Assembly (NCBI GenBank): GCA_036172245.1
Contig: JAYWIR010000062.1
Span: 62,001-126,000 of the forward strand
Direction of reading: 5' to 3'
From: Raillietiella orientalis
Taxonomy: Eukaryota
DNA: 64,000 bases
The notes beneath the pieces were generated by a model that was not told the origin of the DNA, did not search any database, and worked only from the letters and a program-made list of their open reading frames with translations. Below, in pieces: positions 1-61,459 of this stretch. The translations under genes were made by a program, and so were the position numbers. Position 1 is the first letter of the stretch, and every line of letters starts with the position of its first letter.

Positions 1-265
1 GACCAGAAAAAAAACGTGTTGTTAAAGAAAAAAAAAAAGGAAACAAAACTTTATCATAGAATTTTTCTTACTGTACGCACTTTAATAATAAAAGCCCCGG
101 CTCACCCGAGTGAAAAACCTGAGTCTGCTGGCAGACCCGACTGTCGTCATCAAACCGCACGCCCTTCCCGGCAGCGTTGATGCTTGCTTTCACGAAAACC
201 GTGACCCCGCAGGTGTTGCGTGCGCCGTATTGCCAATACAACCAACCCCCGTGTATTTACAGTTG

Positions 266-1508
266 ATGGTAGTGTATCAGAAAAAGTAATATCGCAGCAG
301 CACGTGAAGATGAACTAGCCGCGGCATTTAAGGAGTACAGTAATAGCTTGCCAGATATCGATGGGGATATTGAAATTGGACTCACTACAGGAACTCATGT
401 GGATCTACCCGAAGACAAACGGCTACCTATATATCAACCAACCAATACCTGCGTAACCGTCAAAAACTTGGCAGCAGTGGCCAACGGTTGGCTTTACAGT
501 TCCAAACAGTATAAAGACGCACATTTAACCCTTATGATCAACGGGATATACGCTCTGCTAACATATGACATGATCAGATTCCGATCTGTGAACGGTGTGC
601 TATTGCCCGATGGTGATTGGCGGCCGACACCTCAAAGATATGACTTAACCCCTGCCCATAGAGCGTCTAGCCAATCGGCTCTCCACCAACAATTGGCAAC
701 TAACTGTATGGTGTCAGTCATAGCTACCAAGGTTTCCTGGTGGTTAACTAATCACCACACTGGTGTGCGGAAGGACAATACTCGAGGAGCTGGATATCCG
801 CTCAAAGTTTGGCGCTCATTATTCGCACGTTCACCCTTGTCTGAACAGAAGGGTATGGCTGTAGCGCATACACTTGCACATTTCTGTAGCACGCTTCAAG
901 TGCTCGAGTTGGCTGGCTTTAATCACACGATAGAGTCGGTGCCTCTTACTGTACATGGACCCACCTTCAAACCAGTCATAATATCTCAAGATGCACTGCT
1001 AAGATTCTTATCCCCGCCTGCTGGAACCCACAGGCATGCAGTCGCCTATCAAGCATTCAAACGCTTAGTTGACTGGGCCCAGGCGGCTCATTGCCCTGAC
1101 ATCGAAAACATGTTGTTTCTGGGAGAGGCGTATATAGGCATTATGCTCAATGAAAAATTCTACCACATAGGTGCAAGATACTTGACCGGCCAAGCTCGCA
1201 CAAATTTCAATGATTCAGACGCCAATTCAACTTTAGGGCGACTTGGATCTTTTATGTTAAACGTGCACCCGAAATCGACCTTCTGTCTTTCACGCCATAT
1301 GACTCAGCAAGCCATCGAGTCAAAAGAAGACTTTTGACCCGAGTGGGAAGCCTTTTGCTCAAAAGTTCCGAAAGAACTTTCGCTTAGACCTATAGAAATG
1401 ATAATCCCAACTCTAGGAACTGATCGTGTGGCGGACATTAGATCGAAGCTATACGCGGCTATCCGGACTTTTGAGCATAGGCTTCCCCGGGCTGACAGCC
1501 CAGGCTGA
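266..1508 (+). pseudogene. Endogenous viral element: nucleoprotein-like gene, copy N1 (resembles qinvirus-type negative-strand RNA virus N)
   Basis: Intronless 329-aa ORF 348-1337, frame open from 273. Probable ATG at 266 with a frameshift in an A-run; in-frame TGA at 1335 (EDF*PEWEAFC), frame continues to 1508; AATAAA at ~1619. Motifs ATKVSWWLTNHHTG, HFCST, PPAGTHRHAVA, YHIGARYLTG and TLGRLGSF are shared with a second copy at 7580-8717. The family assignment is from recalled motif resemblance, not a search. Confidence 0.6.
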
Positions 1509-1689
1509 GACAGCACGAGGTGTTTCCCGCAGCTGAGCCTATGCATTAGAAGAACGACCAACTCTCCCCAGTTGTGTTGCCTTCCCATATTTGTGACTTC
1601 ATACATAATGACTAATTGAATAAAGTTTGCTTGAGTTTTTTTAAAAAAGAACAAAACAAAACAGGCCGCGATATGGAACACCTTTGTTG

Positions 1690-3140
1690 CCCCCCTCTTG
1701 CGCCCTCTGCTTTTTGTTTTCCCGCCCCCCTACTCGGCCAAGCTCCAGGCGCACAGCCTGTTGAGGAACGCTCTGTGTGACCTGCGAGGTCCAGGATCCG
1801 CCTGAAAGACTTGGCGGATCCGCGTCGGGATGCTAGCTTAGGCATCCCGACGCTGGACAGAATCGAGCTGCAGGTGCAGCTTCGGATGTTGGCCCTGTGC
1901 GCCGACCTATGGTCCACTCCGTGGTGCGCTCCCGCGCGCCTGCTCCTGCGGCGCTGCACCGGCAGCGATGGACTTCTGTCGCTGCGGCCGCATACGGAGC
2001 GCGCCACGAGAAGCTTCGGTTTCCCGATGAAACCGCTATACCGGCTCCTGGCAGCCCACGCATGGATCTCCTGCCGCCCAACGAACTTTGAATGCTGGCG
2101 GCAGGAACCGTTGCATGCCTGGGCAAAGCACCAGGATTTTTTGCCTTCTGGAACTCCGTTGCGCTCACCTCTCCCCGTACTGCACGGTGGATGAGGTGTG
2201 CAACAGCCAGAAGTGGACTCGCCTGGCCGTCACGCCCCTCGCCGACGCGCTGTGAGCCCTCAGGGCAAGAGATGACAGCTGCGAACCGGAGAGATGGGAG
2301 GTCGCCTGCACCATCGCAGGAACAACACGACCCATTGGCGGCTGGTGGACTTGCGAGCTGGCGGACGCCTCCACGCCTCGCCAAGATCCGAAGGGACTCC
2401 TTCGGTGGAGTGAACACTTAAGTGTGGCCCCCGATGAACTTGTGGTCCCTCCCTCCTGTTTGAACACTTCTGTGTTTTCCCTTTTGTGGAAGCAGGACGT
2501 CATCATGCTGATGCATTGTGGTTTTCACTCCAACCAGCGGACTAACCGTGTTTCCGGGTGAGTTTTCTTCCCAAACTGCAAGCGGTGCGGAAAAGTCGAA
2601 ACGCTTCGCACCTGCTCCTAGACTGCAGTGCCCTCCTAGGACTTTGGCGGAGGCTGGCCTCCGCTCTTCTGCACCAGGGGGACACCGCGAGAGACTTGAT
2701 GCGCCGCTTCTTCACGCCAGGCGGCCTGTCTTTGGGTGCTGTCGTTGCAACCGTGTGTTGCACCCGCGCCATCGACAAGGCCCACCGAGAGTTGGAGAAG
2801 CTGGCCATCCTTCGTCAGCCCACCTGATTAGCCAGCGCGAGCATGCCGTAGGCTGCCGAGTGGGCCCATCTACCAGAGAGCGTGAGAGAGATCGCCGGCA
2901 TCAATCGCCGGTTCTGAAAGGAAGGAACGGCCGTACCAAAGAACCCTGTCCCCTGCCCTCCATATCTTTATCTTTATTTTTTATACTAGTGTATTTGTGG
3001 TCCCCTCTCTCCCGTTCCGGACTTTCGGTATACCGACCTGCATGTCGGGGTTCCCACCCCTTTCGTCTCTTGTGGATCCTTTGTCCGGGAACTCTGTTCC
3101 CGGATAGTTTTTCAATAAACGCCCCGGCGCACCCGGGTGA
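1690..3140 (+). mobile_element. Degraded 3' part of an L1/Tx1-like LINE ORF2 plus 3' UTR
   Basis: RIRLKDLADPRRDASLGIPTL resembles the post-RT P..GGLG.P motif. The C-terminus (AAEWAHLPESVREIAGI) is homologous to the fragment at ~13900 (AVRRTHLPQEDESVVAGI). A pyrimidine-rich UTR ends in the AATAAA+hairpin motif at 3114-3140. Confidence 0.6.
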
Positions 3141-3174
3141 TAATCAGCCGCCCCCCTTCCATTGTTCGGACGTG

Positions 3175-4829
3175 CATTCTTGCGCTCCGTCTTCGGAATT
3201 TTTTACTGTTGTGTTTTTTGGGTGTGGTGTGAATTTTCGAAAGAAGATGAAGCCAACACCTGCTTCCATGGAGGTGGAGGAATCCCCCTGCGTTGCAGGA
3301 CCTTCTTCGGGAGGAGTGGAAGCCTCCACCGATCGTCTCTCGCCTCCAGCGAGTTTTGCCGTCGTTGCTAAGGCAGCAGCGTCCAACGGAGCCTCATCCG
3401 ATGAGGCGGAGCTACGGGCCTACGCCGCTCATGGCTACAAGCCCCCTCTGGCCTACAAGGTCAGTGCTGCCTACAGGGATGGGACGGGAGACCAGCTCTG
3501 GAGCGAGCTGGAACGCGTCAAGGTGCGCGAGGACGATCTCCTGGTATTAATGCCGGTGAGCACGCTTCGGCATTGGGAGGTCCGCTGCAAACATGCAGCC
3601 CTCGTCCAGCGCCCGCTCCACACGCCCCTCAAAATCAGGGGTAAGGAGGTCGTCCCCGCGGCCCTGGACAATTCGTTCGTGGTCCAACTCTGCAATTCGG
3701 CCGGGAATCGCCGACCGCAAACTCATCATTGCACTGGAGGCCACAGTGCATGCAATGTGGAGGCTCGCGAATCCAGTGAAGATTGCGCACCTCTCTTTCA
3801 GACTCGCCACGGCGCGCGTCACCACGGACGACCGGAGGCTACTGCCTTCGCAGATCCTCCTCGGTGGCGTCGTCGTCTATCTCCGGTTTGCCGGATAAAC
3901 CCCGGCTTGCGGCAACTGCGGCAAGGAGGGCCACCATCCGCGGAAGTGCCCCACCCGCAGTTGCCGCTACTGCAAGATGCACGGCCACTCAATTAATGAG
4001 TGAGCCGAGCTGAAACGAAATAGGTGGCTGAGAAATGTCCCAGTGACATCGCCGTTCGCGCCGATTCAATCCGCCCCATCGTCGGGTAAGAAATCCGGCG
4101 CGAACGAGACTCCGTAGCGGAGTGCGCCAAAGTCCGATTGTGCGGGTGTATCTGAGCGCAAAGCTCCCCAAAAGTCCGCGCAAAAGGGTCAAAAGCCTCT
4201 GGAAGCTGCAAAAAGCAAGCCCCGAGACCCAGCCCGCCGAAAACAAAAGGCAAAACCACCGTCTCTGTCCGTTCGCGCTCCGAACGAAATGGTGGCACGT
4301 GCGGGAGAACCAACGGAGCGTCGAAAGAGGGGTCGCTCGCCCTTCCGCCCGCGAAAGGCATGCCGATCCGCGGGAAAGGCTGCAAAGCCTCGCGCGCGAC
4401 ACCGAAGAATCGCGCCGCTCTGCCTGCACCTTCCGCTGAGGAGGTGCAGCAGGCAGATGCGGCAAGGGAATAACTGGCCGCCATCACCCATCGGGAGGCC
4501 TTGCAACGGATGCAGAGGATCCTGCAGGCCCTCGTGTCAGCCGAAGCAACCCTGAAGGCAGTGACGTTGACTAGACTCTTGTGGGGAAGATGAAATAGAG
4601 GAAGCCAAGGGATCCTTCCCACTTCCCCATGATAAAGGTAGATTGGGCGAAGAGGAAGCCCGCCCGCCAAAAAGGGCACGAAAAAGCCTCCGCTGCGGTT
4701 GCGCGCGCTGTCGCTGCCGCCCTTAGCGAAAGAAAAGCTGTCGAAGCCGCGCCCTCGCGAGGGGGATCCGCGCCGCCCTGGATTTACGGAGTCATCACAG
4801 AGGACCACAACCAAGACTTATAAAAAAAG
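3175..4829 (+). mobile_element. LINE ORF1 (gag-like, CCHC zinc knuckles), frameshifted
   Basis: MEVEESP...ELRAYAAHGYKP...LWSELERVKVREDDLLVL, then zinc-knuckle remnants near 3905-3990 (CGNCGKEGH...C...CRYCKMHGH) and a low-complexity basic tail; ends in a short A-run at ~4822-4828. Confidence 0.7.
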
Positions 4830-4859
4830 TTAAACACAAATTATCAATATATTTACTTC

Positions 4860-5538
4860 TCTAGATCCTCAACCTCCTCAACTCCGGAGTCCAAGAGAAA
4901 TATATCATGGAGCACCATACACGCTTCTACAGTCGAAACGTTAACTTCGTCAAGGAGTGCTACAGTCTTCCACAATGAAACGTCAGCGAATCCGATGGCA
5001 ACACCTCGTCTTCGCGAATGGCAGCTAAACATCCTTGACTTGTTGCGAAAATCTCCCCATCCAAAAAATATGTACTGGGTCAAAAACAACAGAGGCAATG
5101 CCGGCAAAACGACGCTATTTCTAAGAAAAAAAGCTATATACATGCAGTCTTGCAAGAAGGCTGATACGGCACATCTGTATAACGGAGTCCATCATCGTCG
5201 TTCACTTTACAAGGGATAACAAAGAGCTTGTTTGATATGGGTTTATTGAAAGCCTTGAGCATGGTATTCTGTTTGATCCAAAATCAAATACTGGCACAAT
5301 AGGCACAATCAAATACTACGACACCCCTCACGTCTTTGTCATGGCTAATTGGGAACCTGACTTCAGCAAACTATCACAAGGCAGATGGGTTATCATTGAC
5401 TTGGATATTCCTAAAAACAGACGGAAAACTTCCTGGACAATGGATGACTCCGGTTCGATTCTCCCATGGACAAAGCCTCGTTCAGTAGACTTGGTCCCTG
5501 CTCCAATCGACGAATCCGCTTTGTCTAGATCTTCGTGA
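4860..5538 (+). pseudogene. rep: Endogenous CRESS-DNA virus Rep, copy R1 (SF3 helicase half, frameshifted)
   Basis: LREWQ...MYWVKNNRGNAGKTT (Walker A), IIVVHFTRD (degenerate Walker B), GFIESLEHG, PHVFVMANWEPDFSKLSQGRW (motif C and Arg finger); several frameshifts and stops. Confidence 0.85.
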
Positions 5539-5965
5539 ATGGCAACTTCATGTCCTTGAGTTGCTCAGAAAACCTGCCCATCCCAGAAACATCTACTGGG
5601 TCCGACGGCAAGGCAAAACTACCACAGCAAAACATCTTTTTATGCGAGGAGACACCCTATACAGAAGTTGCAGAAAACAAGACGCATCTCACCTCTACAC
5701 AGGTCGAAAAATTATCATAGTAGACTTCACAAGAGATACTAAAGAACAAGTGCCATATTGATTCATCGAGGCTTTGAAAAACGGACTCATCATGGACCCC
5801 AAATACCAAAGGAAGATAAAATGCTTCAAGACACCCCATATAATTGTATTCGCTAACTGGGAACCAGATATGACCAAACTTAGCGAAGATAGATGGATCG
5901 TAAAACGCATTGAAGCACCCCAAAGAGAACTAACTCAACTATTAATAAACAAAGACTTATTGTAA
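5525..5965 (+). pseudogene. rep: Endogenous CRESS-DNA virus Rep, copy R2 (helicase half)
   Basis: One frame: LREWQLHVLELLRKPAHPRNIYWVRRQGKTT...IIIVDFTRD...PY*FIEALKNG...PKY...PHIIVFANWEPDMTKLSEDRW, with one internal TGA; AATAAA at ~5981. Motif style is that of nanovirus/alphasatellite-like Reps. Confidence 0.9.
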
Positions 5966-6315
5966 GCCAACAACACCAACAATAAAAGTTTATTTTACCA
6001 ACTTTTACATCTAGCATTTTTAAACTGGAAGTACACTTTCCTATGAACACGTACAACAGGATAATTCGCCTTCAACACAGCAGCATTCAACCACACAGCG
6101 GGCACAACAAATCCCGATATATGCTTCATCAAATGTGCTTTCAAACCAAACACCACCACTTTCATATCCGAAGCAGAATTCGTATCTAGCCAAGGACACC
6201 TTCGCCGACGAACATAATTCCCACCTGAACTCGGTAAACTCGAAGCAATTAAAGGGAGACAAAACATAGAACCGCCACCCGGTCCAATCCACCTCTTAAA
6301 CGCTCCACTGTTCCT

Positions 6316-7215
6316 TTGCAATACTTGCCAGGGAACCGGAGAGAAAGCGAAACTCCACACATTCAGGGATACACACAAATGCATGAGCCAAGAACCCTGG
6401 CTCAGCTTAGAAGACCACCATGCAGCAGATGCCATCCTGAACATGCAAAGGGATCAGCAAGTTCAAACCTGCAGTACTGCTCCAAGCTGGATACACATCT
6501 ATGGACTTACGGAGCACTTGACAACCCAGCGGAAGAAAATTACGAAAAAAAGGTATTGCGAATACATCCACATATACAATCTCTTTTAGATACTCCAACT
6601 CATGCGATCAGGCCATACAGAGAAATATATACTCGAAAACCACACCAAATTTTATTCAAAAAACGTCAACTTCATCGAGGAGTGCTTCAGAGTCTACCGC
6701 AACGGAACAGCACCGATGGCTTCACTCCGTCTACGACAACGGCAGATGGATATCCTTGACGTGCTTAGAAAAAGTTCACATCCAAGAAATATCCAATGGC
6801 TCAAAGACACCAAGGGAAACGCAGGGAAAACCACCTTCGCAAAGTTTCTCTTTCTTCGAAGAAGAAATATATGTAGAGTTGCAAAAAGGCAGGTGCTGCA
6901 CATCTACACAACGGAGAAGCTATCATCGTCGTCGATTTCATTCGAGATGCAAAAGAACTTGTGCAATACGGGTTCATCGAGTCTTAGAAAAACGGTATCC
7001 TCTTGACCCAAAACATCGAGGATCCAAAAAATATTGACATCCCACACGTCATACTACTCGCCAATTTCAAGTTTTCTTTTTTTTGGGAGGGGGGAGTTTG
7101 CTAAGTACCTCAGAGCCGCCAACTGGGAACCCGACTTCTCCAAACTCTCCTACGAGAGATGGGTCATCATCGACCCTGACACCCACAGCAACAGGAAAAG
7201 AACATCGTGGACCGG
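6316..7215 (+). pseudogene. rep: Endogenous CRESS-DNA virus Rep, copy R3 (near full length: HUH endonuclease + SF3 helicase)
   Basis: RCR motif II ETPHIQGY, motif III NLQYCSK, Walker A GNAGKTT, Walker B IIVVDFIRD, YGFIES*KNG and ANWEPDFSKLSYERW across frameshifts; the last frame stays open to 7432. Confidence 0.9.
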
Positions 7216-7579
7216 ATGGATGATCGAGGGTTCATACAATCCTTCAAAATACAACAAAGATGGCATACTTTCAAGCGGTTATGCACTTACAGAACCTTCA
7301 ACAATTAATGAAAGCATGCTACGCAACGGAAATTACTCGAGACTTCAACCAACGAACTGTGATATATCTCTGAACACAAATGAGCAGGAAGGCAAAAATC
7401 CCAGGCAAGAATCGCAAACAAATTCAGCTTAATGGTACATATTACCTGCCACATCCTTTGGATTTTAAGAACTTAGAGGGTTCACATTATTCCACCTAAT
7501 AGTCCAGTTGTGGGCATAGGGGGACCAACTATTTTGACAGCAATACTAATCATGTTCTTCATTTGTGTAGGGATTAAAA

Positions 7580-8717
7580 GTGTCAGTTGCCTGATCTTAC
7601 ATTTGATACAAATGCAGAGCAATTAGATCCTGACAATGATACCAACTACGATCGTTTCTCAGCTGGGTTACCTGATTTACATGGACATAGAAATTGGCCT
7701 GACGACGGGTACAGACATCGCTCTTCCTGAAGATAAGAAGCGCCCGGTGTACTTGCCCACAGACAGTAGTGTTACAATCAAGAACGTTGCCGCCTCAGCA
7801 GTGGGTTGGCTGTATCAAACCAAGCAGTGGAAAGATACTGCTTTGACTATTATGATTAATGGCATATATGCCTTGTTCACTTATGACATGATACGCTACA
7901 AGAAAGTAAACCAGAACCTCATCCCTAATGGAGACTGGAGACCAACTGGCAAAAGACATGAAATGACCAACAACCAGCGAACCACAGGTCTTTCATTGGT
8001 CAACAAACAGCTGTGGATTGCATGGTGTTAGTTATTGCCACAAAAGTATCCTGGTGGCTCACTAATCACCATGTAGGGGTAAAGAAAGACCAATCGAAAG
8101 GAGCTGGTTTTCCCCTAGAAGTGTGGCTCACCCTCTTCAATAAAATGGCAATTCCAGAAGAGCGTGGAATGGAGATGGAACACTTCTGTAGCACCCTCAG
8201 AATCCTCGAATTAGCTGGGATGAATGGGATTATGGAGTCAGTGGAAATGGGCACAGTGGAAGCTCCTCCTAAACCAGTCACCATATCGCAAGATGCCCTT
8301 ATGCGCTTTCAACACCGCCAGCCGGGACGCATCGGCATGCTGTAGCATTCCAGGCGTTCAAGAGGCTGTTAAACTGGGGTCAAGCGGCCAATTGTCAGTC
8401 CACAGCCAACATGGCTTTCCTTGGTCTATGCGAACATTATGCTTGGCTCAGTGCATTATCACATAGGGACACGATACATCACAGGACAAAATCGAGCAAA
8501 CTTCAACGACGCCACACTGGGGCGCTTGGGATCTTTTATGACTACCATCACCGCCATCCCCGTAGTGACTGAACAAACAACTAGTGAACTCATTGCCCAA
8601 CTCAGCACAAACTTAGGCGGTTCGGCCCGTAGATATGACATCTTGAGGCCGCAACCTGTAAACGCTCCTGAGAATAGACCGGCAGAAATTGTGCCAGCAG
8701 CTGAACCAGATATGTGA
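7580..8717 (+). pseudogene. Endogenous viral element: nucleoprotein-like gene, copy N2 (frameshifted, internal deletion)
   Basis: Colinear with N1: (LPDLHG)DIEIGLTTG...MINGIYALFTYDMIR...ATKVSWWLTNHHVG...HFCST...ISQDALMRF/PPAGTHRHAVAFQAFKRL...YHIGTRYITGQ...TLGRLGSF; at least four frameshifts. Confidence 0.6.
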
Positions 8718-11700
8718 TAGATGAAGCTACCAGTATCTCGTTACCAATTATGTGATAATTAGTGATATCATTCAGATCTCGATTGAAGAAATACAAATTT
8801 GTTTATTTCTCTGTACAAGCTTGTAGTGTTTTAAGAAAAACAACCATAGCATTCTGGACATGCTTGATGTCTCAAAGTACCGGATAATGCATATGACAGG
8901 AATTCAGCGACTGAAAAACCCTTTTCTCAAAATTGGAATAAGAAAAAGAAATCAAAGGCAAACCAAAAGGCAAAATAATAATAAGACTGCCATGCATGAC
9001 GGATAAGTAAAATCGAATTCTTCAGAAGTTTTGTATATCAAACAATTCGGACCCATGAGTCAGTACATTTCGACATTCAGAATGTTTATTGTTCTAATTT
9101 CGAGCGCCAATCTGCATGCATATTCACATAAACATGACCATGAGAATTCATGGAATATCACGTAAAGCAGAGCATTCAACACTAATATACAAATCAGTCT
9201 ACCTTCACAGTCACTTCCAAATTAAAAACACTCCCATGTGTGCCAAAAACATCATGACTGTATGTCTTCATCTTTTCAAAATTGTATTTCACTGAGATTA
9301 TCAACCACAAGGCACAAACGGGCAATTTCATGAGAGAAACTACTCTAACTTTTTAAAAATTAACATATGCGATATTTTAAGACACCAAAATAACCTTACG
9401 TTTTTTGCTGACTACCAGCTTCACACTGCTTAAATTGCACAAAAATTCTGAACATAAATAACATTAAGGAATCCAAAAATAGGTATTACATTTTGCAAAA
9501 ATCAACATCAAAACTGGGATGACACCCTCTTCCTCCTCCACTTGAATAAGCCTCGATTAAATCTCAACTAGTTCATTGGTTAGCCAGAGAATTCTCTATT
9601 CTACCCTCCTCTGAAACTATATTATTCTGTACCGTATTCACCCAGAAAAATGCTCATTCCTTCTAGCATACGTCAACTAGGCATGAAAACCATCTTACAA
9701 CCAATAAATCAAAACCTTGACAAACGGCCAGAGCTGCACTTTCACAATTGCACCTCCAGTACTATTCACATTTCAACTCATGAGCAAGCATACGTTAACT
9801 CACTGCCGATTCTTTTTGACAACTTATATATCATACGACATTCATGTTCTAAAACAAAAGTGATTCCGCTCTGTTTAGATTGAATATTGGCAAATTGGCA
9901 GATGTGTCAAACAGTAGCAAGTTACAAGCTCTCTTGCAATATTACACAACACAGGATTTCAATAACTCACAACAGTTCAACTCAGTAATACATGCAAAAT
10001 TACTTACATTCCACTATTTGATTTGCAGACACTTCAGTCTTGAACTACAATTCTAACTGTAACAATCTAAACTCAATTTGGATCTTATAGCATGATGGAT
10101 TATTTGACTAGTTGGTCTTTTTTTCCCTAAGCATCATTCTGGCTGAATACATACAAATTTCAGTACTTTCAATACAAAGCTTCCCTATCTGCTATTTCTC
10201 AAAATATTCATACTTTCAGATTTTTCTGATTACATGCTTCATTCGTATTTTTGTTTTGCCGTTAAATTGATAATCTTTTTAAGCTAATTCCCAATAATAC
10301 AATAATGAACAAAAGTCTAATAACACAAAAGAATTTGCCTTTGCAAGTCTCCATACATCCAGGTCAGCAAACAAAACTACTGAGACACACACAGATCAAG
10401 AATGCTTTGCATAATCCATTTCAATCAAAGTTTTTTGCAGTATGCACGTAAAGTAGTCAATTCCCACAACTCCTAGAGTAGAAGCAAAAAGAAGCATCAT
10501 TATCACTTTCTTTCACTTCAACTGCAAAACTTGACTACAGAATACAAAACCGTATTAACTTTTTTAGCTTTGTTGGACCTTCAATTCAATAACATCAATT
10601 ACTTTACTCAACTATCAATATCATGGAGAAATTCAGTAAATCCAAACAATACGTGGAGATCTTTGAGACTGCGTGTTTACTATATTAGAAACTTGTATAA
10701 ACTGCTGCATGCCCAGTAAGTGGCCAGTAACTCACTAAATGCACCTAATTGCTTTCAGAAAAGCACTGCTATCTTAACATCACCTAGCTTTCAACAAATT
10801 GAGAACTGTAACTACTACAACTTTGTAGCAACCACTGTTGCAATTCAAAATACATCTGAAAAATCAAATGAAATTAAAAACCACCTGTTTCTAATCAAGG
10901 GAGCTTGTAACTATCAGAAATCGTTTTTAATTCCAAAGATCCACATTGAACGAGGTTCAAACCAAATTCACGATGGAAAAATTCCCAGCCAGAAGGACAG
11001 TTGACCCTAAAATGAAGACTAGCATTCTTTGAACATTTTGACAAATTGAAAACATTCAGCCGTGTGTGCATTATTCCGGTTAGTTTCCCCCAAGATCAAA
11101 CATAAGGTAGAACTAGCGAAAGAGGGAAATGCCGAAATGATTCACTGATATTAACGGAAACTATATACACCTCTGTTGCAAAACCAACATAAGAACTGGA
11201 GGAGAAAAAAAAAAAAGCTTGCAACACAAAAGATAGAAAAAAGCATTATGAAAAAATACTACATAAATCAACTATCTCATAAAACGACTTTTAAGAGGTT
11301 ACTTCCGGTTTCTTTTTGCAGCTGGAATCAATACATTATAGTGGTCTGCTCCCTAGGAAAAGCACACTGCATATCAGCCTATTCTAAACACATTATATGC
11401 AAGTTCCAAATACGAAGCTCTCCTATTGCAACGACGAGGGCTTCCTATTTGGAACTTGCAACTGCATCCTGATTTCGACAATTTCATCCTGATGTGAAAT
11501 CTGTTTTTTCCACGGGCGTCTGAACACGTAACCAAGCAGAAACATGAGCAACTCAGCTCACTGACCAGGCTATTGGAACCTCCTCACTCCTAACAGATAC
11601 ACGAAGCCACATCGCACTAAATTTTCCAAATAAAGTGCTTCCTCAATGCATTGAAGAACTGAAGAAAACTTAACAATCTTCTTCACATCCACTGGCAGTT

Positions 11701-18569: not shown

Positions 18570-20054
18570 GATGATGGAGGGCGTCCAGCACATGCCAGAT
18601 CGCGCAGAGGCTGGGCGGCTGAGGCCAAACGCCCGTCACTCGAGAAGCTTCCTGCCTAAGATAAACAATATCAAAGAGGTGTATTTGGCCCTCTGTAAAG
18701 AGAATGTAGACTTTTTCTACGCACAAGCGATCACGCCGAGCACGACGGGGTTCACAGTTTACACAGACAGTGAACCCCTCATCGAGGCCCTGATCGAAAA
18801 GAGCATAAATATATATGGGTGGATGGTCCGCGGAATCGGCGAAATGGCGTATACGGCGGTGTTTCTTGGAGGGATCTGCGTGACAACAAGTAAGCAAGCG
18901 ATGTGGAGTTTCCTCACCAAGCACGGGAAAGTTATGGATGTGGAATTCCGGGAGTACTCCCGAAAGGTGTTGATGTCATCGCCAAGATCAAGTTATTTGA
19001 AGACGTAAAGATTCCGGGGCTCGCCCACATCGATGCGGATTCCCAGGAAGTCTTCACACGATATAGGCAACAGCCTACATTTTTCGCGGGTTGCAAGCAC
19101 TTTGGCCACAGGGTGCGTGCTTGCTGAGGATCTCGGTGCTTCCCCTGCGGCAAGCGGGGACACCTAGATCCGGTCTTGCAACCAACCTGAAGTGTGTGCC
19201 TTCTGTAAGGCAACGGGCCAGGCGAGGTGGAGCTGCCCGGAATACGCCAACTGGCGTACCATGCGCGGGCTCTCACCCGTACGAGAGAGAACCCAGAAAG
19301 AGGCGGAACAGCCGCAAAACATCACCGAGAAGGTGGAAAAAGTGAGAAAGGTCGTCCCAGTATCGGAGGAGGCTTCATCAAAGTGAGGAAAAAGGGGAAG
19401 AGGACGATGCTCGCTAAGGAGCAGCAGACCTCCGACAAGCCCGAGGAGAAAGCAGAAGAGAAAATGGAAACAGCCGAGCCCGTCCCGGAAACCCTGCGAA
19501 TCAACGAGGAAGTGGCGAAGCTGAATGAAGAGGTCCAGCCGGGAACCAGCGGAGGGGAGCAGGGAAAACGCATCTCCAGGTTTCTGGAAGACATAAATAA
19601 TGTAATGGATGAAATCCAGAGTGAGAAGCTAGGAGAAAAGCTTCTCCACATCAAGTCGAACTTCTGTGCGACAGTGAGCCTGGAGAGGCTCCCAAGCAAA
19701 GTGATCGTGGACTCAGGAAACCCGACGGAGGAGGCAGAATTTCTGACTTCACCAAACGGAAAGTGATGCTGTTAGCGAAAAACCTTCTGCGCAGCGGCGG
19801 CAGCGGTCTAATCGGCAGAAGAAACTCCGAAAGGCTAAAAAATAATATCCCTTTATGGCATCGTCGTTGTTCACCGTCAGGAGAATCCACATTGCTTCCT
19901 GGAATGTTGAGAGAATTACCGACCAGGCAAAGAGAAAAAGGATTGTGCGGACCATTGCACATCAAGATATAGTGTGCCAGCAAGAAATCCACGTGATGGG
20001 GCCATGAATCAGCCTCGACATGGAACGGCGACGCTGACACTCCAACGTTTCTCG
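18570..20054 (+). mobile_element. L1/Tx1-like LINE 5' part: ORF1 plus start of APE endonuclease, truncated at 20054
   Basis: ORF1 with an RRM-like region (FLTKHGKVMDVEF) and knuckles (GCKHFGHRVRAC, CFPCGKRGH, CAFCKATG); EN start RIHIASWNVERITDQAKRKRIV...QDIVCQQEIH at ~19880-19995. Confidence 0.75.
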
Positions 20055-23000
20055 AGCGACGAGCCCCTGGACGGTCCCACGCCCATCGCACCCTCGCGTC
20101 CGGAGACCATCCTTTGCGGTTAAACGGGCGAGATGATCCTGAGGGGAGCCTTGGACCTGCGTCCAGGTTTCCGGAGAGGAGCCGCGATGACGGAAGCTGT
20201 GTTTCGGGCCCCCGCGTCACAGTCGGAAATCTCAGATGGAAGCCGTGCTCCTCAAGGCTTTTTTCGCGACCTCGGGAGGTCGCTGCAGCCAAAAAGCGTA
20301 CTCTTCGGCCGCGTGTTTAAAGGCGACCTCATCGAGCGAGGCCTCGACGAAAGACGACGCCGCCGGGTCGCTAGCCTTCGTGTTGATATTGCCGGAGGGT
20401 TGGCAATCGGCAGCGGTCAGTTCAGCTTTGGCGCACTGTTCGTCCGCAGCAATGCGTTCGATAAGAACAGAGCAGCTTTTTGTTTTCTCACGCTTCGGCG
20501 AAATTTCTCTGCTTTCGCGATTTCTCTTTCTTTCTGTTTGTGCTCCTTTTTGAACATCTTGGACTGGACCACCTGCCAGGCAGCCTCTTCTCCGTTTTCC
20601 TCGACCCTATCGGCATTTTCCAATGGGGTAGGGATGCGGCCTTGGGCTTCGGCGCAGGGATCGCGTCCTTAACGGTGGCTCGCGTTGTTAATTTCCTTTT
20701 TTTTTTTTTCGCGTCGCACTTTTTTTCATTCCTCGGCCGACACTTTTGTGGCATATCCGACGGCAATGCCCCATGGTTTGGCAAAGGTCACACTGCACGT
20801 TGGGGCAGCTCTTCTGGAGGTGTCCCTCCGTACCGCAGCGCCCGCAGTAGTTGCGTTTCCCCACGAACCACAGGTCGACCGTTTCACGCGCCACCACCCA
20901 CGGCGCTCGCCGTTCGTTATGGAGCGGCAGCGACACTACAAGTGAGAGCAAGTCGTGCTCCGAGAAAGGAGAAGGCTTCCTCCACAACGCGTGGACCGTG
21001 CCCAAGTTTTCGAGCTCTTTTCGGACAGCCTCTTTGGTCATCCGGAGAGTAATGCCGAGGAGGTGGACCACGATGCACCTGTCCTCCGTAATGTGGAGGA
21101 ACCAAGGATTGCCCATGAGAACTTGGGTGCGGAGCAGACGCGGAGCGAGAGTTGCTTCCCTGCAAATCACCTCCACGTACTGCCCGCCGCTCGTGATGGT
21201 CATTGCAAACAGCTCCTCCTGCGGTACGCTGCAAGAGCGCAGAGCTTTCGAGAAGGCGCGAGGAGGGCGGAACGCTAAAAGAAGAAACCTCTACTCGCAG
21301 GAGAGTAGAGGTTTCCTACCTTCTATAACGGAAGTGGGAGGTACTCCACTTGCAGGTCGTTCTCCTGCTTCAGTCTTTCCCAAGGTGCTGGAGCCGCAGC
21401 CACGGAAATCCAAGCCCGCGCTGCCGCGAGGGACGATTCTGCGGGTTCGGTTGTTGCCCCCAATTCCATCGCCTCGGGAAAGACTCCTTCAGTAAAACGT
21501 TGCCCGGGCGCCCCATGAGAAACATCTGCACTGGCTAGAAGACAAATTCCTGCACTTACGCTTCAGTTCCGAACTGGTTTTCGCTGTGCGAACTGTGTTC
21601 TTGCAGCTGTCAGGTCAAGGTGATGACCGTGCACACCTGGAAGAAGAGTGCACGAACGGATTGCTGCCTTTCCACTGAACGATCGCCGATTGAGCTCAGT
21701 ACCTATCGAACCACCTTCTTGGAAAGTGAAAGTGCACGCGAACGCTACACGCATTCCAGGTCCTCTGAATCGTCGCCTAACGCGATTGTGGAGGCTAAAC
21801 CCGACGGTCCAATTTGTCCGAATTATGCCAACATGATAGTAGGGAATCATCCGAATTCTTCTCCAATTGGTGATTCCGAGCGTGCAAACGGACACTCGGA
21901 TGAAGTCTCACATTTGTGGATGGAGGTTTTTCACTCTGAGTGCTCTCATTCGCAATAGGAACGAAGGACGTTCTCTGCGTGGAGAGTGTGGCCATGGAAA
22001 TTCGGGGGTCACGAAGACGGGGAGCGAACGAAAGAGGGGAAGCAGCCTTACAGATGGGACGATGCTCTTTCGATACGATGACCTCAGACTGAAATAGGAG
22101 TGAGGTCAGCGTCAACGCTTCCCGTGGACGGTTGGCTGGCTCGCTGACGCGGGCAGAACTGGAACTCGGAGCGCGTCAGCCATCCAGCTTCCTTTCAGAG
22201 GCGATCGACTCGGGATGAGAAAGCCCTGAAATCACCAGGGGAGTGCGAGGGAAGTGCGATGCTGCAGGATGAGGTGACGTTAGTACGGAGCGAGCGATGT
22301 GTCTTGTTTGTTTTTTCGGTGAGACGGCGGATTCAAAAGAATGCAAAGAGCCGTCCTTCGCCGAGGCTTCCGGTTGACCATCGCGCCATGTTCGCCTTGA
22401 CTTCGGAAAACTTGTCCTCCAACTTCGCGACAGAACGGAAAACAAAAGACAAAGGTGGCATTATCGAAAAGGTCTATTCGTGTCATGCGATCGCCCCAAA
22501 CACTTTGCATCCTGCTTCTTCAAGTGGGACTGCTGACCTCACTGCTTTGCTGTCATCGGTGACGTGCCCGAAGCCTGGCGAGCGACTGTAAAAGAACTCG
22601 CACAGCAGCGAAAATCTCACCTTCTTCTCCTACTGCTTCCTTCGGATTCCAATCGGAAAGGAATGCGGCCGTGTCAGCTGGTGGGACTCCGGCAGTGCAC
22701 AGACAGGTCGTGATGGGTCCAAGTGGGGGTGTCGTCAGGCGCTCGTGAACGCTGCTGCCCTCAGCGTTCCTGCTCACACCTGTTGGGTGATGTGCTTGCA
22801 CAAATGTGTGCACGTCCGATAAGACTCCCATCCACGAATCGGCCCACGCCGCATCCCTGAATGCAACAAGCAACGTTTTCGTTTCCCCTCTGTCCCAAAC
22901 ACTTACTCTGCTTTGGATTCCTCGAGGACGTCACCTTCAGGCAATCGCGCCACGTCCGTCGTATCCTTGACAGTTGTTCCAGGATCTGGGCCCCAGGCAA

Positions 23001-23296
23001 AGGATACTTTCCACTGGCGCGCCCTTCAACTTACCCTCTTCAGCCAGGAGAGGTCCGCAACGTTCTCGCTGACGACGCAAAGATGAGCGTAAGTCGCACA
23101 TGCGGTGTTGCACTCTTTGAATGCCTCGATCTGTCGAAGACATTCCGAGAGGGGATCGAGTTGTGTGAGCGCCGTACGGTGGTCAGGTTTCTTGCAACGA
23201 GAAACCACATGGAGGAATCCCCGCTGGATTCTGGAAAAAATAACAAAGTTGCTCGCAAGCACTTGTTCTGACGTTTTCGGAATTGCAAGAAGGCAA
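20055..23296 (-). repeat. Left arm of 3.24-kb inverted duplication (derived copy: partial ORF1 element + partial CAP pseudogene)
   Basis: Reverse complement of 30997-34239; paired ORF coordinates sum to 54293/54294. I noticed only a 1-nt homopolymer indel and two substitutions. Confidence 0.97.
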
Positions 23297-27821: not shown

Positions 27822-30049
27822 TCTCTCTAATGATCATGTTTATTTTGGTTGAGGTTATCTGAGAGCTGTTGCTCCAAGTAATTCGTTAGATCTTTTCGAT
27901 TTAAAGGGTATAACACCAGTGTCTAAGAAGTCTCTACCTACCTGTTCGCTCTATCCCACAGGATTGCCTGACTCCTAAAGAACTTCCGCCAAACTCAATA
28001 TCCAAAAAAGGTTGCTTCCTTGGTAGTCCAACTTTAGCTCTGACAGTGTCCCGACCAGAGAGTATGGCCACTTGTTTCGAGAGTGGTGTCGTAGCGGTCG
28101 TCGCCGTTTCTTCTTCCCCAGTGTGAAAGAGGTGCCATGCTTCCGTGACACCAGGTACAGCATCGATTCCTGTGCTGCTCTCGCCACTCGGGACTGATGA
28201 ATGAACTCATTGGAGAGTACCACACTCAACCCGACCTATCCGAAAGGTTTCCACCCTGAAAAAGAATTCGAAAACGAGTTTTTCCCGACGGATCCTTTTG
28301 GCGAACATCGAATGGGTGCAGCGTGGACTGCGCACTCACCAGCATGATGCTCGAGAGCCTCCTTGCTGTTGTTGCAGACAAGGAGGATGCGTTCCTTTAA
28401 AGGACCGCGTGTCTCCGGGAAGCGCATGCTCCACGGACTGCTGCCGTGGTGAAGAAGAAATTCGGCGCCAACCGCGTCGTTTGCGATTGGCGCAACTCGC
28501 GTGTGCTGCGTTGCAGAATGCGTGCTCTGACCCGGACGGTGGTGAGGGGAATCACGCGTGCACAGGTACGATGGACATGCGCATCCTTCACGAAAACGGA
28601 ACACCCACGCCTTGGATGGCGCGTGTGACCACCTCCGTGACAAGCGTACATCGTACGAACGAAGATCGACGAAACCGTGAAGCAGCAAGCCAACCAACGA
28701 GGTCAATTCCTTGCGGGAATCAAGAAAAAGAAAACGAGCCAAAGAGGCTTTCGAAAGAGGCGCCCAGTTGGTTTCTTTCGCAGGTTTGTGGGCACCACTG
28801 CGCACACCACCAGGATGAGCTGGCGCTCGCCAGACGCGTTGCTTGAGTGCGTGCTCGGTCGACTGCGTGACGTCAGCATGAACACCTCTGTGTTCGGCAA
28901 CCATTCTTGTTGCTTAGCAAAGGAAATTTTCCTTGAAACGCGTGCTGATTGTGAATTCGGTTCTCGGATCGACTCGTGGATTTCTTGGAACAGATCGCAA
29001 ATCGGAGCATCGTACTGCTGCTGAATCCATTCCTCATCTACTTGGGCGTTGTTTGTGAGTTCGGAACATCGTAGCAGATGGCGAATATCATCCGGAAGGG
29101 ATTCGCATCTCTGCGAATACTCTCCACAACCCCGGATTCGCTTCCCACGCCACACGGAAAGCGATTCTCGTCGCTCGCTACCATGAAACACATCTAGTGT
29201 ATCTTGCCTCAGGGGTATTCCTGAAGAATTGTCGACTTGAGAACCCGGTTGCCTTGAGAAAGCAGAAAAGCTGATCGACAAGGAGAGCTGAGCATCGATA
29301 AGATGAATGCAACGTTCTTCAGAGTGTGCAGTACATGCAATGCAGATAGTAATTCATGACTTGTGCATGACTTCCAGGTCGAGTACGTCCTATCTGAAAA
29401 TTGTGCTCAGCTCGCATTAGCATGTCGTCCAGGATAATGTCACTGTGGTTGACGAGGACACGCTGTGTTTTGAGGAAAGTCCCTCGAAGCCTCTCAAAAG
29501 CACATGGCTGTTCAAGAGAAAGCTCACTGCGGGAGAGAAGAAGAGCGTAAAATTCAAAAGGAGAGACGAAGAAGCCATCCAATGTGCAAGCAGGGATCAA
29601 AAGAAAGAATGAATGCTAAGCTGAAGAAGCAGAAAAAGAAGGAAGAAAAGAGACTGCCAAACGTAGAAAGGAGCAGGACAAGGAGGGCCAGAAGCAACGC
29701 AAGCAGCATGGCGTGGAGAAGCCAATAGTTCAGATGGAGCAGAACACGAAAGAAGAGAGAGGTGTGAACAGCGAGATTGTTCCGAGTGAAAAGGAAGGAG
29801 CTGCAGGAAGCACCAGTGCTTTGAGGACAGAGCATTAAGATGGTGTACATAACAAGGCCCTGAACAAGAAAGTCGCATCACGGACAAACACGGCTTGCTT
29901 GCTTTCCATTCTGCAAGCACAAGAGAAGATTGGATGAGGTGGCATTGCCCTCCTTGGGAAGCAACTAATAAACTAACCCGGAGGGCTCGTACAGAATGCA
30001 AAAAGGGAATACAATCAGGAATGTAAAATGAAAGAAGGAATTTCCCGAT

Positions 30050-30093
30050 CTTGCTCAGATCTACAAGGGATTTCCCTTGTAGATCTGAGCAAG
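30050..30093. repeat. Hairpin with 21-bp perfect arms and 2-nt loop
   Basis: cttgctcagatctacaaggga-tt-tcccttgtagatctgagcaag; extends imperfectly to 30043-30100. Confidence 0.9.
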
Positions 30094-30407
30094 GGCGGGA
30101 TTTCAGGAAAGAGCGGGGAACGACCCCCATATTTGGAGTGTGGCAGTCGATTTACCCGGAATCACACCCTCTCGAGGAAATGGAGATATCAGCAGAGGAG
30201 GCGTCCGCGAACCCCTAACAGGAAGAACGCCTGCAGATGCGCTCTTTATCCGTCGAGGCGTGCAGTGCGACGGTGTGGAATCGTTCCATCAGTCTGCAGG
30301 AAGTTGGTCAAATCGGTCCCGGTTTCCCCTTTCTCTGGGGCATTTTTGACGAATGCGGAGATTGCATGTCCCGCGTGTAGCTCATTTGGACCCGCTGACC
30401 CATGGAA

Positions 30408-32250
30408 GATGTTGCTTCCTTCAATTGCAGAGAAAACCAGGAAAACAATTTTCACGGCATTGGAATCAATCGTGGAACGATTGGAGAATGCAACTACGAG
30501 GCTGGAGGCTGCTTCAACAACGGTGGCCCCGCCTGGAGAAAAAGTGTCCGAGAGCTTCGGTCCCTGCGTTCTTGCCTTCTACTTCCTGTCATGTACGGAA
30601 GTGTACATCCGTTCTCCAAGAAGTTGCTCCACTCACGCATTCGCATGGGCATTGCGAACATTCGGGTTCCAGAAGAAATTCGTGTTGCTGTGGTTTTGTT
30701 CCCTTCAACATTCCTTGGCTTCTTTCCGTCACAAAAAGTGCAAAGCATGTGGTTAGCTGCTTGGGTTTCCGGGATGGGATACTGTGTTTGAAATGTTTGC
30801 AATTTTCATTCATTGTATCTCTTTTCAGAGACGGGCGCAGAGTGGGTCCTGAACGTTGACGAAATTCGTTGGGGGTCTTTGGCAGTTTTCCACATCCGGT
30901 CCACGAGCATCTTGGAGGAAGTTCGGCGGCAGGCGCTGATGGTGGTGAAAGCATTCCGGAAAGAGCTCGGTATTTTTTGGAAACCATCATTCGCCGTTGC
31001 CTTCTTGCAATTCCGAAAACGTCAGAACAAGTGCTTGCGAGCAACTTTGTTATTTTTTCCAGAATCCAGCGGGGATTCCTCCATGTGGTTTCTCGTTGCA
31101 AGAAACCTGACCACCGTACGGCGCTCACACAACTCGATCCCCTCTCGGAATGTCTTCGACAGATCGAGGCATTCAAAGAGTGCAACACCGCATGTGCGAC
31201 TTACGCTCATCTTTGCGTCGTCAGCGAGAACGTTGCGGACCTCTCCTGGCTGAAGAGGGTAAGTTGAAGGGCGCGCCAGTGGAAAGTATCCTTTGCCTGG
31301 GGCCCAGATCCTGGAACAACTGTCAAGGATACGACGGACGTGGCGCGATTGCCTGAAGGTGACGTCCTCGAGGAATCCAAAGCAGAGTAAGTGTTTGGGA
31401 CAGAGGGGAAACGAAAACGTTGCTTGTTGCATTCAGGGATGCGGCGTGGGCCGATTCGTGGATGGGAGTCTTATCGGACGTGCACACATTTGTGCAAGCA
31501 CATCACCCAACAGGTGTGAGCAGGAACGCTGAGGGCAGCAGCGTTCACGAGCGCCTGACGACACCCCCACTTGGACCCATCACGACCTGTCTGTGCACTG
31601 CCGGAGTCCCACCAGCTGACACGGCCGCATTCCTTTCCGATTGGAATCCGAAGGAAGCAGTAGGAGAAGAAGGTGAGATTTTCGCTGCTGTGCGAGTTCT
31701 TTTACAGTCGCTCGCCAGGCTTCGGGCACGTCACCGATGACAGCAAAGCAGTGAGGTCAGCAGTCCCACTTGAAGAAGCAGGATGCAAAGTGTTTGGGGC
31801 GATCGCATGACACGAATAGACCTTTTCGATAATGCCACCTTTGTCTTTTGTTTTCCGTTCTGTCGCGAAGTTGGAGGACAAGTTTTCCGAAGTCAAGGCG
31901 AACATGGCGCGATGGTCAACCGGAAGCCTCGGCGAAGGACGGCTCTTTGCATTCTTTTGAATCCGCCGTCTCACCGAAAAAACAAACAAGACACATCGCT
32001 CGCTCCGTACTAACGTCACCTCATCCTGCAGCATCGCACTTCCCTCGCACTCCCCTGGTGATTTCAGGGCTTTCTCATCCCGAGTCGATCGCCTCTGAAA
32101 GGAAGCTGGATGGCTGACGCGCTCCGAGTTCCAGTTCTGCCCGCGTCAGCGAGCCAGCCAACCGTCCACGGGACGCGTTGACGCTGACCTCACTCCTATT
32201 TCAGTCTGAGGTCATCGTATCGAAAGAGCATCGTCCCATCTGTAAGGCTG
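30408..32250 (+). pseudogene. CAP: Adenylyl cyclase-associated protein (CAP/capulet/Srv2), unprocessed pseudogene or very divergent paralogue
   Basis: Exon-like blocks in CAP order: LESIVERLENATTRLEA; VLNVDEIRWGSL...EVRRQALMVVKAF; QRGFLHVVSRCKKP...LDPLSECLRQIEAFKE...HLCVVSENVADLSW; PDPGTTVKD...VLEESK; WADSWMGVLSDVHTFVQAHHPTG; GFGHVTDD; SEVIVSK. GTAAGT donors at ~31259 and ~31387; two splice sites appear mutated and the C-terminus has stops. Confidence 0.8.
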
Positions 32251-34239: not shown

Positions 34240-34560
34240 TGGGAAATTCCTGCACTGCGACGCGGAGGGCATGGAGGTGGCGGAGGCCATCCAAGTACCT
34301 GTTGTTTGTGTGTATTGTTTGGATGCGCTATTATCGTACAGTCCGAAGTTCCCTGTTTACCCAGTGTCTTGCGGAGCGAAGCCAAAGACCTCCCCGACCC
34401 ACCACAAGTGACATTCTTTTTGTTGTCCCTATCCCCCACCCTGTTTCGTACTTCTATCATCCCGGCTTGCGTGCCGGCGGACTTGTGTCTTTGCTTGGTT
34501 GGCCTTGGTTGGGAACATCGCTCCTAACTGGTTTTCAATAAACGTCCCGGGGTGACCGGA
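32824..34560 (+). mobile_element. ORF1-only (non-autonomous) LINE-derived element
   Basis: ORF1 with an RRM-like segment (VVHLLGITLRMTKEAVRKELENLGTV) and CGRCGTEGHLQKSC / CDLCQTMGHCRRIC knuckles, a disordered tail, then a 3' UTR and AATAAA+hairpin at 34537-34559 with no ORF2 between. Confidence 0.7.

Positions 34561-48621: not shown

Positions 48622-61459
<12,838 letters not shown>

Follow-up and report, generated by a model that had tools for sequence, protein, structure and literature searches.

A stretch of 64,000 nucleotides (nt) from the genome assembly of Raillietiella orientalis (GCA_036172245.1, contig JAYWIR010000062.1, positions 62,001 to 126,000 of the forward strand; the window hereafter) carries five virus-derived pseudogenes near its beginning, all on the + strand and all between positions 273 and 8717. 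Two of these are N-like copies (N1 and N2) related to the protein encoded by the small genome segment of qinviruses, which are negative-strand RNA viruses. The remaining three (Rep1, Rep2 and Rep3) derive from the replication-associated protein (Rep) gene of CRESS DNA viruses, whose circular genomes are single-stranded and encode a Rep. They are arranged in the order N, Rep, Rep, Rep, N, in a single orientation, and all five are now pseudogenes without evident protein function. A first-pass annotation of the window had placed two N-like and three Rep copies on the + strand within 266–8717, and this content is borne out by open reading frames (ORFs), tblastn searches and exact motif matches. 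ORFs were taken from stop to stop, and the limits and lesions of each copy were refined by alignment between the copies and to their relatives. The array comprises:

273–1508, + strand: N1, a near full-length qinvirus-like small-segment (putative nucleoprotein) gene in a single frame
1509–1665, + strand: possible viral 3′ untranslated part of N1, tentatively assigned from an AATAAA near 1620 and a T/A-rich run to about 1665
1666–4823, no strand: GC-rich spacer between N1 and Rep1 (59% GC against 0.41–0.48 in the viral copies), with long, chance-like ORFs
4865–5535, + strand: Rep1, a 5′-truncated CRESS Rep with linker, superfamily 3 (SF3) helicase and C-terminal tail
5504–5962, + strand: Rep2, a helicase-only CRESS Rep fragment in a single frame
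6271–7429, + strand: Rep3, a nearly full-length CRESS Rep with HUH endonuclease domain and helicase
7578–8549, + strand: N2, a second qinvirus-like N-type copy

The two gene types are confined to this part of the window. N-like similarity is found solely at 348–1367 and 7684–8549 (tblastn with the copies and their database relatives), and Rep-like similarity solely at 4800–7300 of the + strand (tblastn with 152 database Reps); the copies and their relatives found no further N-like or Rep matches elsewhere in the window or on the − strand. The motifs quoted in the first-pass annotation occur letter for letter in the three Rep copies (ANWEPDFSKLSQGRW in Rep1, ANWEPDMTKLSEDRW in Rep2 and ANWEPDFSKLSYERW in Rep3), and the 49-nt stretches that encode them share a nucleotide identity of just 67–73%. 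Even this level is retained solely in the most conserved motif stretches, and comparison of the window with itself detected no DNA-level similarity between paralogues at E ≤ 1e-10. Clustering of the copies within 8.7 of the 64 kb would occur by chance with a probability of about 0.002; the corresponding value for the co-orientation of five independent events is 0.06, which is weak evidence alone.

The viral relatives of the N-like and Rep copies

N1 retains 354 open codons and is interrupted by one internal TGA (1335–1337), beyond which its frame remains similar to the C-terminus of its closest database relative and closes at 1506–1508. That relative (P0001; E 4.4e-47) is a protein of 373 amino acids (aa) annotated as a gene in an ant genome, to residues 7–333 of which N1 positions 348–1367 are aligned by tblastn. 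N1 also matches a 376-aa protein that Hubei qinvirus-like virus 1 encodes on a 1625-nt contig (P0002; E 1.3e-32, 33% identity, 93% coverage), and a 583-aa metagenomic protein (E 6.7e-11); just these three relatives were found among 5.8 billion clustered proteins. A metagenome scan added a further relative, a 399-aa N-like ORF on a 1673-nt contig that lacks a Rep (L001), and a scan of viral contigs with N1 returned no relative. N2 has accumulated four frameshifts (at about 7682, 7980–8010, 8312 and 8421); its similarity to N1 ends at 8549, and its open frame carries on to 8717. Neither copy has an ATG at the aligned N-terminus, where the start would be expected. A feature-based protein search (Atlas) with N1 yielded families without a relation to it, recognised at a low level, and was disregarded. 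No Pfam or PDB match was obtained for N1 or its relatives, including in a PDB search with the family profile, and the AlphaFold2 model of N1, built from a four-sequence alignment, is of low confidence (mean predicted local distance difference test score of 35.6), all-helical and not of the jelly-roll type.

Qinvirus genomes are described as consisting of two RNA segments, of which the smaller (1.6–1.9 kb) encodes one hypothetical or putative structural protein that is assumed to be a nucleocapsid or matrix protein (PMC10496375, PMC6955108). One of these accounts places the N-like family on the small segment of Qinviridae, in a cultured host as a 2.2 kb segment beside a 5.3 kb segment for the RNA-dependent RNA polymerase (RdRp; PMC10496375), and Qinviridae nucleoproteins have been treated as structurally close to those of other Haploviricotina (PMC10888975). 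On the basis of sequence similarity, N1 and N2 are homologues of the qinvirus small-segment protein. This protein is, like N1, about 375 aa long, with relatives that form the sole ORF of segments of 1.6–1.9 kb; the window copies differ from it in being chromosomal pseudogenes.

Several further observations concern these relatives and the flanks of the N copies. In the metagenomic contig (L001, 1–1673), a second short frame and a 3′ region rich in A come after the N-like ORF, a layout that fits a qinvirus-type small segment. The ant homologue is a hypothetical protein of Formica fusca on a 15.5 Mb contig and probably represents another endogenised qinvirus small-segment gene, with its frame open. 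The A-rich opening of the window (1–60) loosely resembles the run after N1 (1620–1665), and the array may extend upstream, though the alignment is unconvincing. A conserved viral 3′ end was considered and dropped, because the A-rich stretches after each N copy, at the opening of the window and at the metagenomic contig's 3′ end aligned unconvincingly. General Pfam scans of the window ORFs turned up no polymerase domain.

Rep3 is the only Rep copy to retain the nuclease region. Its HUH domain passes the PF02407 profile (window positions 6253–6756; score 30.1 bits, cut-off 26; E 5.9e-7), and 67 of the 152 Rep queries match 6271–6582 in one frame. Endonuclease motifs II (PHIQG) and III (YCSK) are aligned to the same motifs of database Reps, and motif I is degenerate (TATRSNP opposite TFTLNNP). 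The same 152 queries gave no match to an HUH domain of Rep1 at 4300–4860 and none for Rep2 before 5504, where only the Rep1 helicase was found. The truncation points of the copies differ: Rep3 retains the HUH domain, Rep1 begins in the linker and Rep2 begins at the helicase. Rep2 starts where the Rep1 tail ends, the two abutting or overlapping at 5504–5535 without a spacer. The Walker A motif reads GNAGKTT in Rep1 and Rep3 and RRQGKTT in Rep2, and the Rep copies also display IIVVDF/IIIVDF and ANW, which we take to be the SF3 Walker B and motif C. With its stop read as X, Rep2 covers positions 8–104 of the 105 in the PF00910 helicase profile, scoring 18.9 bits (below the cut-off of 21.5; E 0.002). 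Rep1 is disrupted by frame changes at about 4964 and 5185 and a TGA at 5233–5235, Rep2 by one internal TGA (5759–5761), and Rep3 by frame changes at about 6586, about 6868 and 7066–7117 (the last an insertion) together with TAG codons at 6874 and 6985. Pfam searches with raw ORF pieces matched neither the N copies nor the short Rep pieces, and a PDB sequence search with Rep2 returned a chance match only.

Relatives of the Rep copies are abundant. An exhaustive HMMER search with Rep2 matched 5660 cluster representatives at E ≤ 1e-3, of which 2055 reached E ≤ 1e-10, and among the best 25 matches, 19 carry PF02407 (Viral_Rep) and 17 carry PF00910. The matches include two proteins of 281–283 aa with PF02407, encoded on contigs of 1780 and 1669 nt (P0004 and P0005). 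Within a set of 79 IMG/VR contigs related to this Rep clade, 74 are matched by Rep1, 78 by Rep2 and 74 by Rep3. The three copies share 46–57% identity among themselves, and none exceeds 44% identity with any database or IMG/VR relative. Pfam scans of ORFs revealed nothing capsid-like beside them. Judging from these similarities, the Rep copies are typical Rep-only fossils of CRESS-DNA viruses (Cressdnaviricota-type), and are gene fragments rather than genomes. The best Rep2 match (P0006; E 1.7e-43) is a predicted protein of 354 aa that consists of two tandem helicase-only Reps without an HUH domain, resembling a similar head-to-tail Rep fossil in another genome.

These affiliations bear on the claim of the first-pass annotation that both gene types came from the same, possibly multipartite, virus family. 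That claim is not supported: the N copies belong with negative-strand RNA viruses and the Rep copies with single-stranded DNA (ssDNA) viruses. N and Rep might still have shared a virus if a multipartite ssDNA virus or an RNA–DNA chimeric (crucivirus-like) virus had obtained an N-like structural protein from qinvirus-like viruses. On that view, the Rep3–N2 pair, and likewise N1 with the Rep1 that follows it, would be what is left of genomes from a hitherto unknown group of small DNA viruses and, if this were true, the recurrent association of N and Rep would reflect genome content rather than coincidence. The spacing of Rep3 and N2 would suit such an origin, as they are co-oriented, lie 145 nt apart (from the Rep3 stop to the N2 frame) and together span about 2.3–2.7 kb, a typical CRESS genome size; however, the nonanucleotide origin motif of such genomes (NANTATTAC) was not found on either strand of 1–9500. 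The N1–N2 and Rep1–Rep3 pairs have also diverged to a like extent (64% and 58% protein identity), and the contigs with N-like proteins (1625, 1673 and 2144 nt) are similar in their small size to the two Rep contigs named above. Yet an N-like protein is encoded on none of the 79 CRESS contigs related to these Reps, where the sole match (E 0.22) is of chance level, L001 bears its N-like ORF alone, and the literature assigns the N-like family to the smaller RNA segment of Qinviridae (PMC10496375). The low-confidence structural model, in being all-helical rather than a jelly-roll, is weak evidence in the same direction. Overall, a common viral source for N and Rep is very doubtful.

Divergence and decay of the copies

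Divergence between paralogues was quantified by Nei–Gojobori (NG86) counts on hand-checked in-frame segment pairs, the pieces of which were never joined. The proportions of synonymous (pS) and nonsynonymous (pN) differences, with 95% bootstrap intervals for their ratio, are:

N1–N2: 277 codons, protein identity 64%, pS 0.865, pN 0.247, pN/pS 0.285 (0.23–0.36)
Rep1–Rep3: 209 codons, protein identity 58%, pS 0.758, pN 0.287, pN/pS 0.38 (0.31–0.47)
Rep1–Rep2: 131 codons, protein identity 54%, pS 0.814, pN 0.293, pN/pS 0.36 (0.28–0.46)
Rep2–Rep3: 135 codons, protein identity 47%, pS 0.624, pN 0.339, pN/pS 0.54 (0.42–0.69)

All intervals lie below 1. Four-fold degenerate sites are 21–31% identical, which is essentially random, and the pN/pS values are upper bounds on dN/dS because pS is saturated. 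The extensive synonymous-site differences described in the first-pass annotation are thereby corroborated (pS 0.62–0.87), and the ratio it had put forward as a sign of divergence before integration falls below 1 in all four pairs (pN/pS 0.29–0.54). GC content at third codon positions is alike across the copies (0.40–0.52).

The distribution of lesions tells how little of this divergence arose after inactivation. In 4221 nt, 5 internal stops are seen against 53.2 expected under neutral post-duplication divergence (P 3e-17), an expectation based on a pairwise distance of about 0.55–0.58 substitutions per site. Converted to a neutral distance, these stops correspond to 0.026 per copy (95% interval 0.008–0.060), compared with about 0.28 for half the pairwise distance. 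The few stops and low pN/pS values together indicate that nearly all divergence predates pseudogenisation and that the copies derive from five different constrained templates. The paralogues have thus been shown to have diverged under protein-level purifying selection before inactivation, with each copy since decaying on its own by just a few percent. No disabling lesion is common to paralogues, which answers the other question raised in the first-pass annotation, namely whether such mutations were shared; the stops of Rep1 and Rep2, although only two codons apart, are aligned with different residues. A variant genetic code was considered as an explanation for the internal TGA codons and rejected, as these align with D, Q/P and a conserved G in relatives and not with W.

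The adjacency and co-orientation of the copies might alternatively have arisen by tandem duplication after integration, followed by neutral decay. This explanation is refuted by the deficit of stops (5 against 53.2 expected, P 3e-17), by pN/pS values well below 1 in four of four pairs, by the absence of any lesion in common and by the lack of DNA-level similarity between the copies at E ≤ 1e-10.

Origin of the array

Our favoured interpretation, held with moderate confidence, is that the array is a compact cluster of non-retroviral endogenous viral elements (EVEs) in an animal genome, in which five templates probably accumulated at a trap locus. Five different viral templates would have been copied into germline DNA in the same orientation. 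Two of these were likely small-segment (putative nucleoprotein) genes, each from a different qinvirus-like negative-strand RNA virus, and the other three likely Rep genes, each from a separate member of a single CRESS-DNA-virus lineage that is otherwise unsampled. The copies may have gathered at one permissive 'trap' locus, by analogy with those described for the PIWI-interacting RNA (piRNA) clusters of mosquitoes; in such trap loci, co-oriented fragments of unrelated viruses would be transcribed antisense into small RNAs.

A number of observations weigh against this interpretation. First, the three Reps group together in a clade that includes no exogenous sequence (SH-aLRT 99, in a quick IQ-TREE analysis of 151 columns of the helicase region with the three window rows and 100 of the 153 extracted database rows), and N1 and N2 are each other's closest relatives; both patterns would also result from duplication within the genome. 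Second, lesion density (0.9–4.6 per kb) is homogeneous among the five copies (chi-square p 0.49), and so provides no positive evidence for differing insertion times, although the test is based on 14 lesions in total and has little power. Third, that the N-like family functions as a nucleoprotein is assumed in the literature, and is putative in the same way for the window copies. Finally, retrotransposon domains, whether of reverse transcriptase, integrase, protease or gag families, are absent among the 93 ORFs of at least 75 aa in the first 20 kb, in which only PF02407 of Rep3 and a weak DUF898 match were found, and with no retroelement domain near the array, the LTR-rich (long terminal repeat) context of the mosquito precedent is missing. 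Long terminal or inverted repeats were likewise not detected around the array, though short or very decayed retroelement fragments could be missed. The proposal in the first-pass annotation that the copies diverged as viruses and were captured separately is accordingly upheld in part: divergence before integration stands, the copies not being neutral duplicates, whereas separate capture events do not follow from a homogeneous lesion density (p 0.49) and Reps that form one clade.

The lesion data are also compatible with a single composite capture, in which one event joined the five fragments and a single insertion followed. Two routes to such a composite can be envisaged, namely template switching by reverse transcriptase among co-packaged sense viral mRNAs, or end-joining between viral DNA and cDNA in a germ cell with several infections. 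Head-to-tail copying of sense transcripts would yield a common orientation without selection, and the direct junction of the Rep1 tail with the Rep2 start (5504–5535), the mid-gene beginnings of Rep1 and Rep2 and the homogeneous lesion density (p 0.49, in a test that remains weak with 14 lesions only) are all consistent with it. High transcription is expected of N in negative-strand viruses and of Rep in CRESS viruses, and only genes of this kind are present in the array. Nevertheless, a composite would require at least two qinvirus-like and three CRESS viruses together in one germ cell and would have to accommodate 3.2 kb of unrelated GC-rich spacer inside the array, and no reverse-transcriptase or LTR remnant was found next to it. 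A composite origin is thus unlikely, while still deserving consideration; we think that stepwise accumulation is more likely than one composite event, though the data do not separate them.

Low pN/pS is itself silent on where selection acted, and this allows for a different history in which one N and one Rep integrated, duplicated in the genome, were maintained for long under purifying selection as host genes and became pseudogenes recently. The monophyly of the Reps and the mutual proximity of the N copies would be expected in this case, and the 354 open codons of N1 and the intact 373-aa homologue annotated as a gene in an ant genome would be in keeping with host function. Viral capture is favoured over such selected duplicates because Rep1 and Rep2 lack promoters and are truncated at different points, with Rep2 beginning within the Rep1 tail, because neither N copy has a start codon at its aligned N-terminus, and because the order N–Rep–Rep–Rep–N does not represent a duplicated unit, nor a simple tandem one. 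Lacking a nuclease domain and a start codon, Rep1 and Rep2 are unlikely to have been long-lived genes. Synonymous saturation would moreover demand a very long phase as host genes, then near-simultaneous loss of all five. We consider this history improbable. Neither phylogeny nor decay distinguishes between stepwise capture, a single composite capture and old selected duplicates.

Genomic setting, precedents and implications

Beyond the array, the window contains recognisable host genes:

37844–38780, − strand: a CTLH and RING (MAEA/RMD5-like) gene with very short introns
48625–49095, − strand: Slowpoke_C exon of a slowpoke/BK channel gene, intron-split and recognised by Pfam like the three that follow
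49287–50062, − strand: Slo-like RCK exon of the same gene
56601–57498, − strand: BK_channel_a exon of the same gene
60877–62004, − strand: Ion_trans exon of the same gene

The pore exon of slowpoke encodes a sequence nearly identical to Drosophila Slowpoke, its best PDB match (7pxe, E 1.9e-26). The presence of intron-containing slowpoke and CTLH/RING genes on the same contig indicates that the window is animal DNA, probably that of an arthropod or of an allied invertebrate. The viral cluster is at least 29 kb from the nearest of these host genes, and does not lie inside slowpoke. It might be argued that exogenous viral sequence was wrongly joined to host DNA, through contamination or an assembly artefact. 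This is extremely unlikely, given that all five copies contain stops or frameshifts, unlike replicating viruses, that a gene of an RNA virus could be present in a DNA assembly only as an integrated copy, and that the window contains no Ns and the sequence runs on into the intron-containing host genes.

Other features of the window are peripheral to the array. The spacer at 1666–4823 has no terminal repeats, and its open frame of 494 codons (2512–3993) has no homologue and no significant Pfam match. No tandem repeats, Rfam families or tRNA genes were found in the window. An inverted repeat of 3.25 kb (20048–23296 and 30997–34246, 99.85% identity) flanks about 7.7 kb and may have arisen as a young palindromic duplication, as a large foldback element or through an error of assembly; each of its arms has an ORF with a weak, sub-threshold Scytalone_dh-like Pfam match (E about 1e-3). 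An ORF at 29977–30753 on the + strand matches the CAP N-terminal motif PF01213 (26.8 bits against a cut-off of 19), but is GC-rich and may represent a low-complexity match.

Unidirectional arrays of EVEs from different virus families have been described in piRNA clusters of Aedes aegypti and Aedes albopictus (Whitfield et al., bioRxiv 10.1101/127498). As described there, these resemble the window array in containing decayed non-retroviral fragments of several virus families at one locus and in one orientation, but the Aedes loci are more than 50 kb long, contain Ty3/gypsy and Pao-Bel LTR fragments at high density and have been shown to produce antisense piRNAs. The window array, in contrast, covers 8.7 kb, has no retrotransposon domains that could be found and includes an ssDNA virus as one partner. 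Multi-family unidirectional EVE loci have thus already been described (10.1101/127498). The window array reveals neither a new mechanism nor a new kind of element.

Each of the two gene types also has precedents among EVEs. Endogenous CRESS or circovirus-like Reps of animal and protist genomes, such as the Rep EVEs reported in ants (PMC6540820), are like those of the window in being Rep-only, without a capsid gene, and often truncated and frameshifted. The window Reps differ from other Rep EVEs in comprising three mutually divergent copies, arranged head to tail, that form a clade of their own. The endogenous bornavirus-like N elements of mammals are likewise derived from the N gene of a negative-strand virus and are almost full length, with a long open frame. 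They stem from a different virus order than N1 and N2, and neither Pfam nor sequence comparison gave a link to bornavirus N. Among qinviruses, an RdRp EVE has been reported in ants, in the same account as the Rep EVEs (PMC6540820), and further EVEs in a bristletail (PMC6955108). A limited search of the literature on qinvirus EVEs turned up no report of an endogenised small-segment gene, though supplements may list such elements.

The locus has implications for both virus groups. The true hosts of qinviruses are debated, with many suggested to infect the microbiota rather than the arthropods from which they were sampled (PMC10496375). The N copies provide evidence, from the germline, of infection of this animal lineage itself by qinvirus-like viruses, and the Rep copies, on the favoured interpretation, show that it was also infected by at least three members of a CRESS-virus lineage that is unsampled. 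The array further provides a compact, non-mosquito case in which fossils of an RNA virus and of an ssDNA virus lie together in one co-oriented array, through which the idea of EVE traps and heritable small-RNA immunity may become testable in another host.

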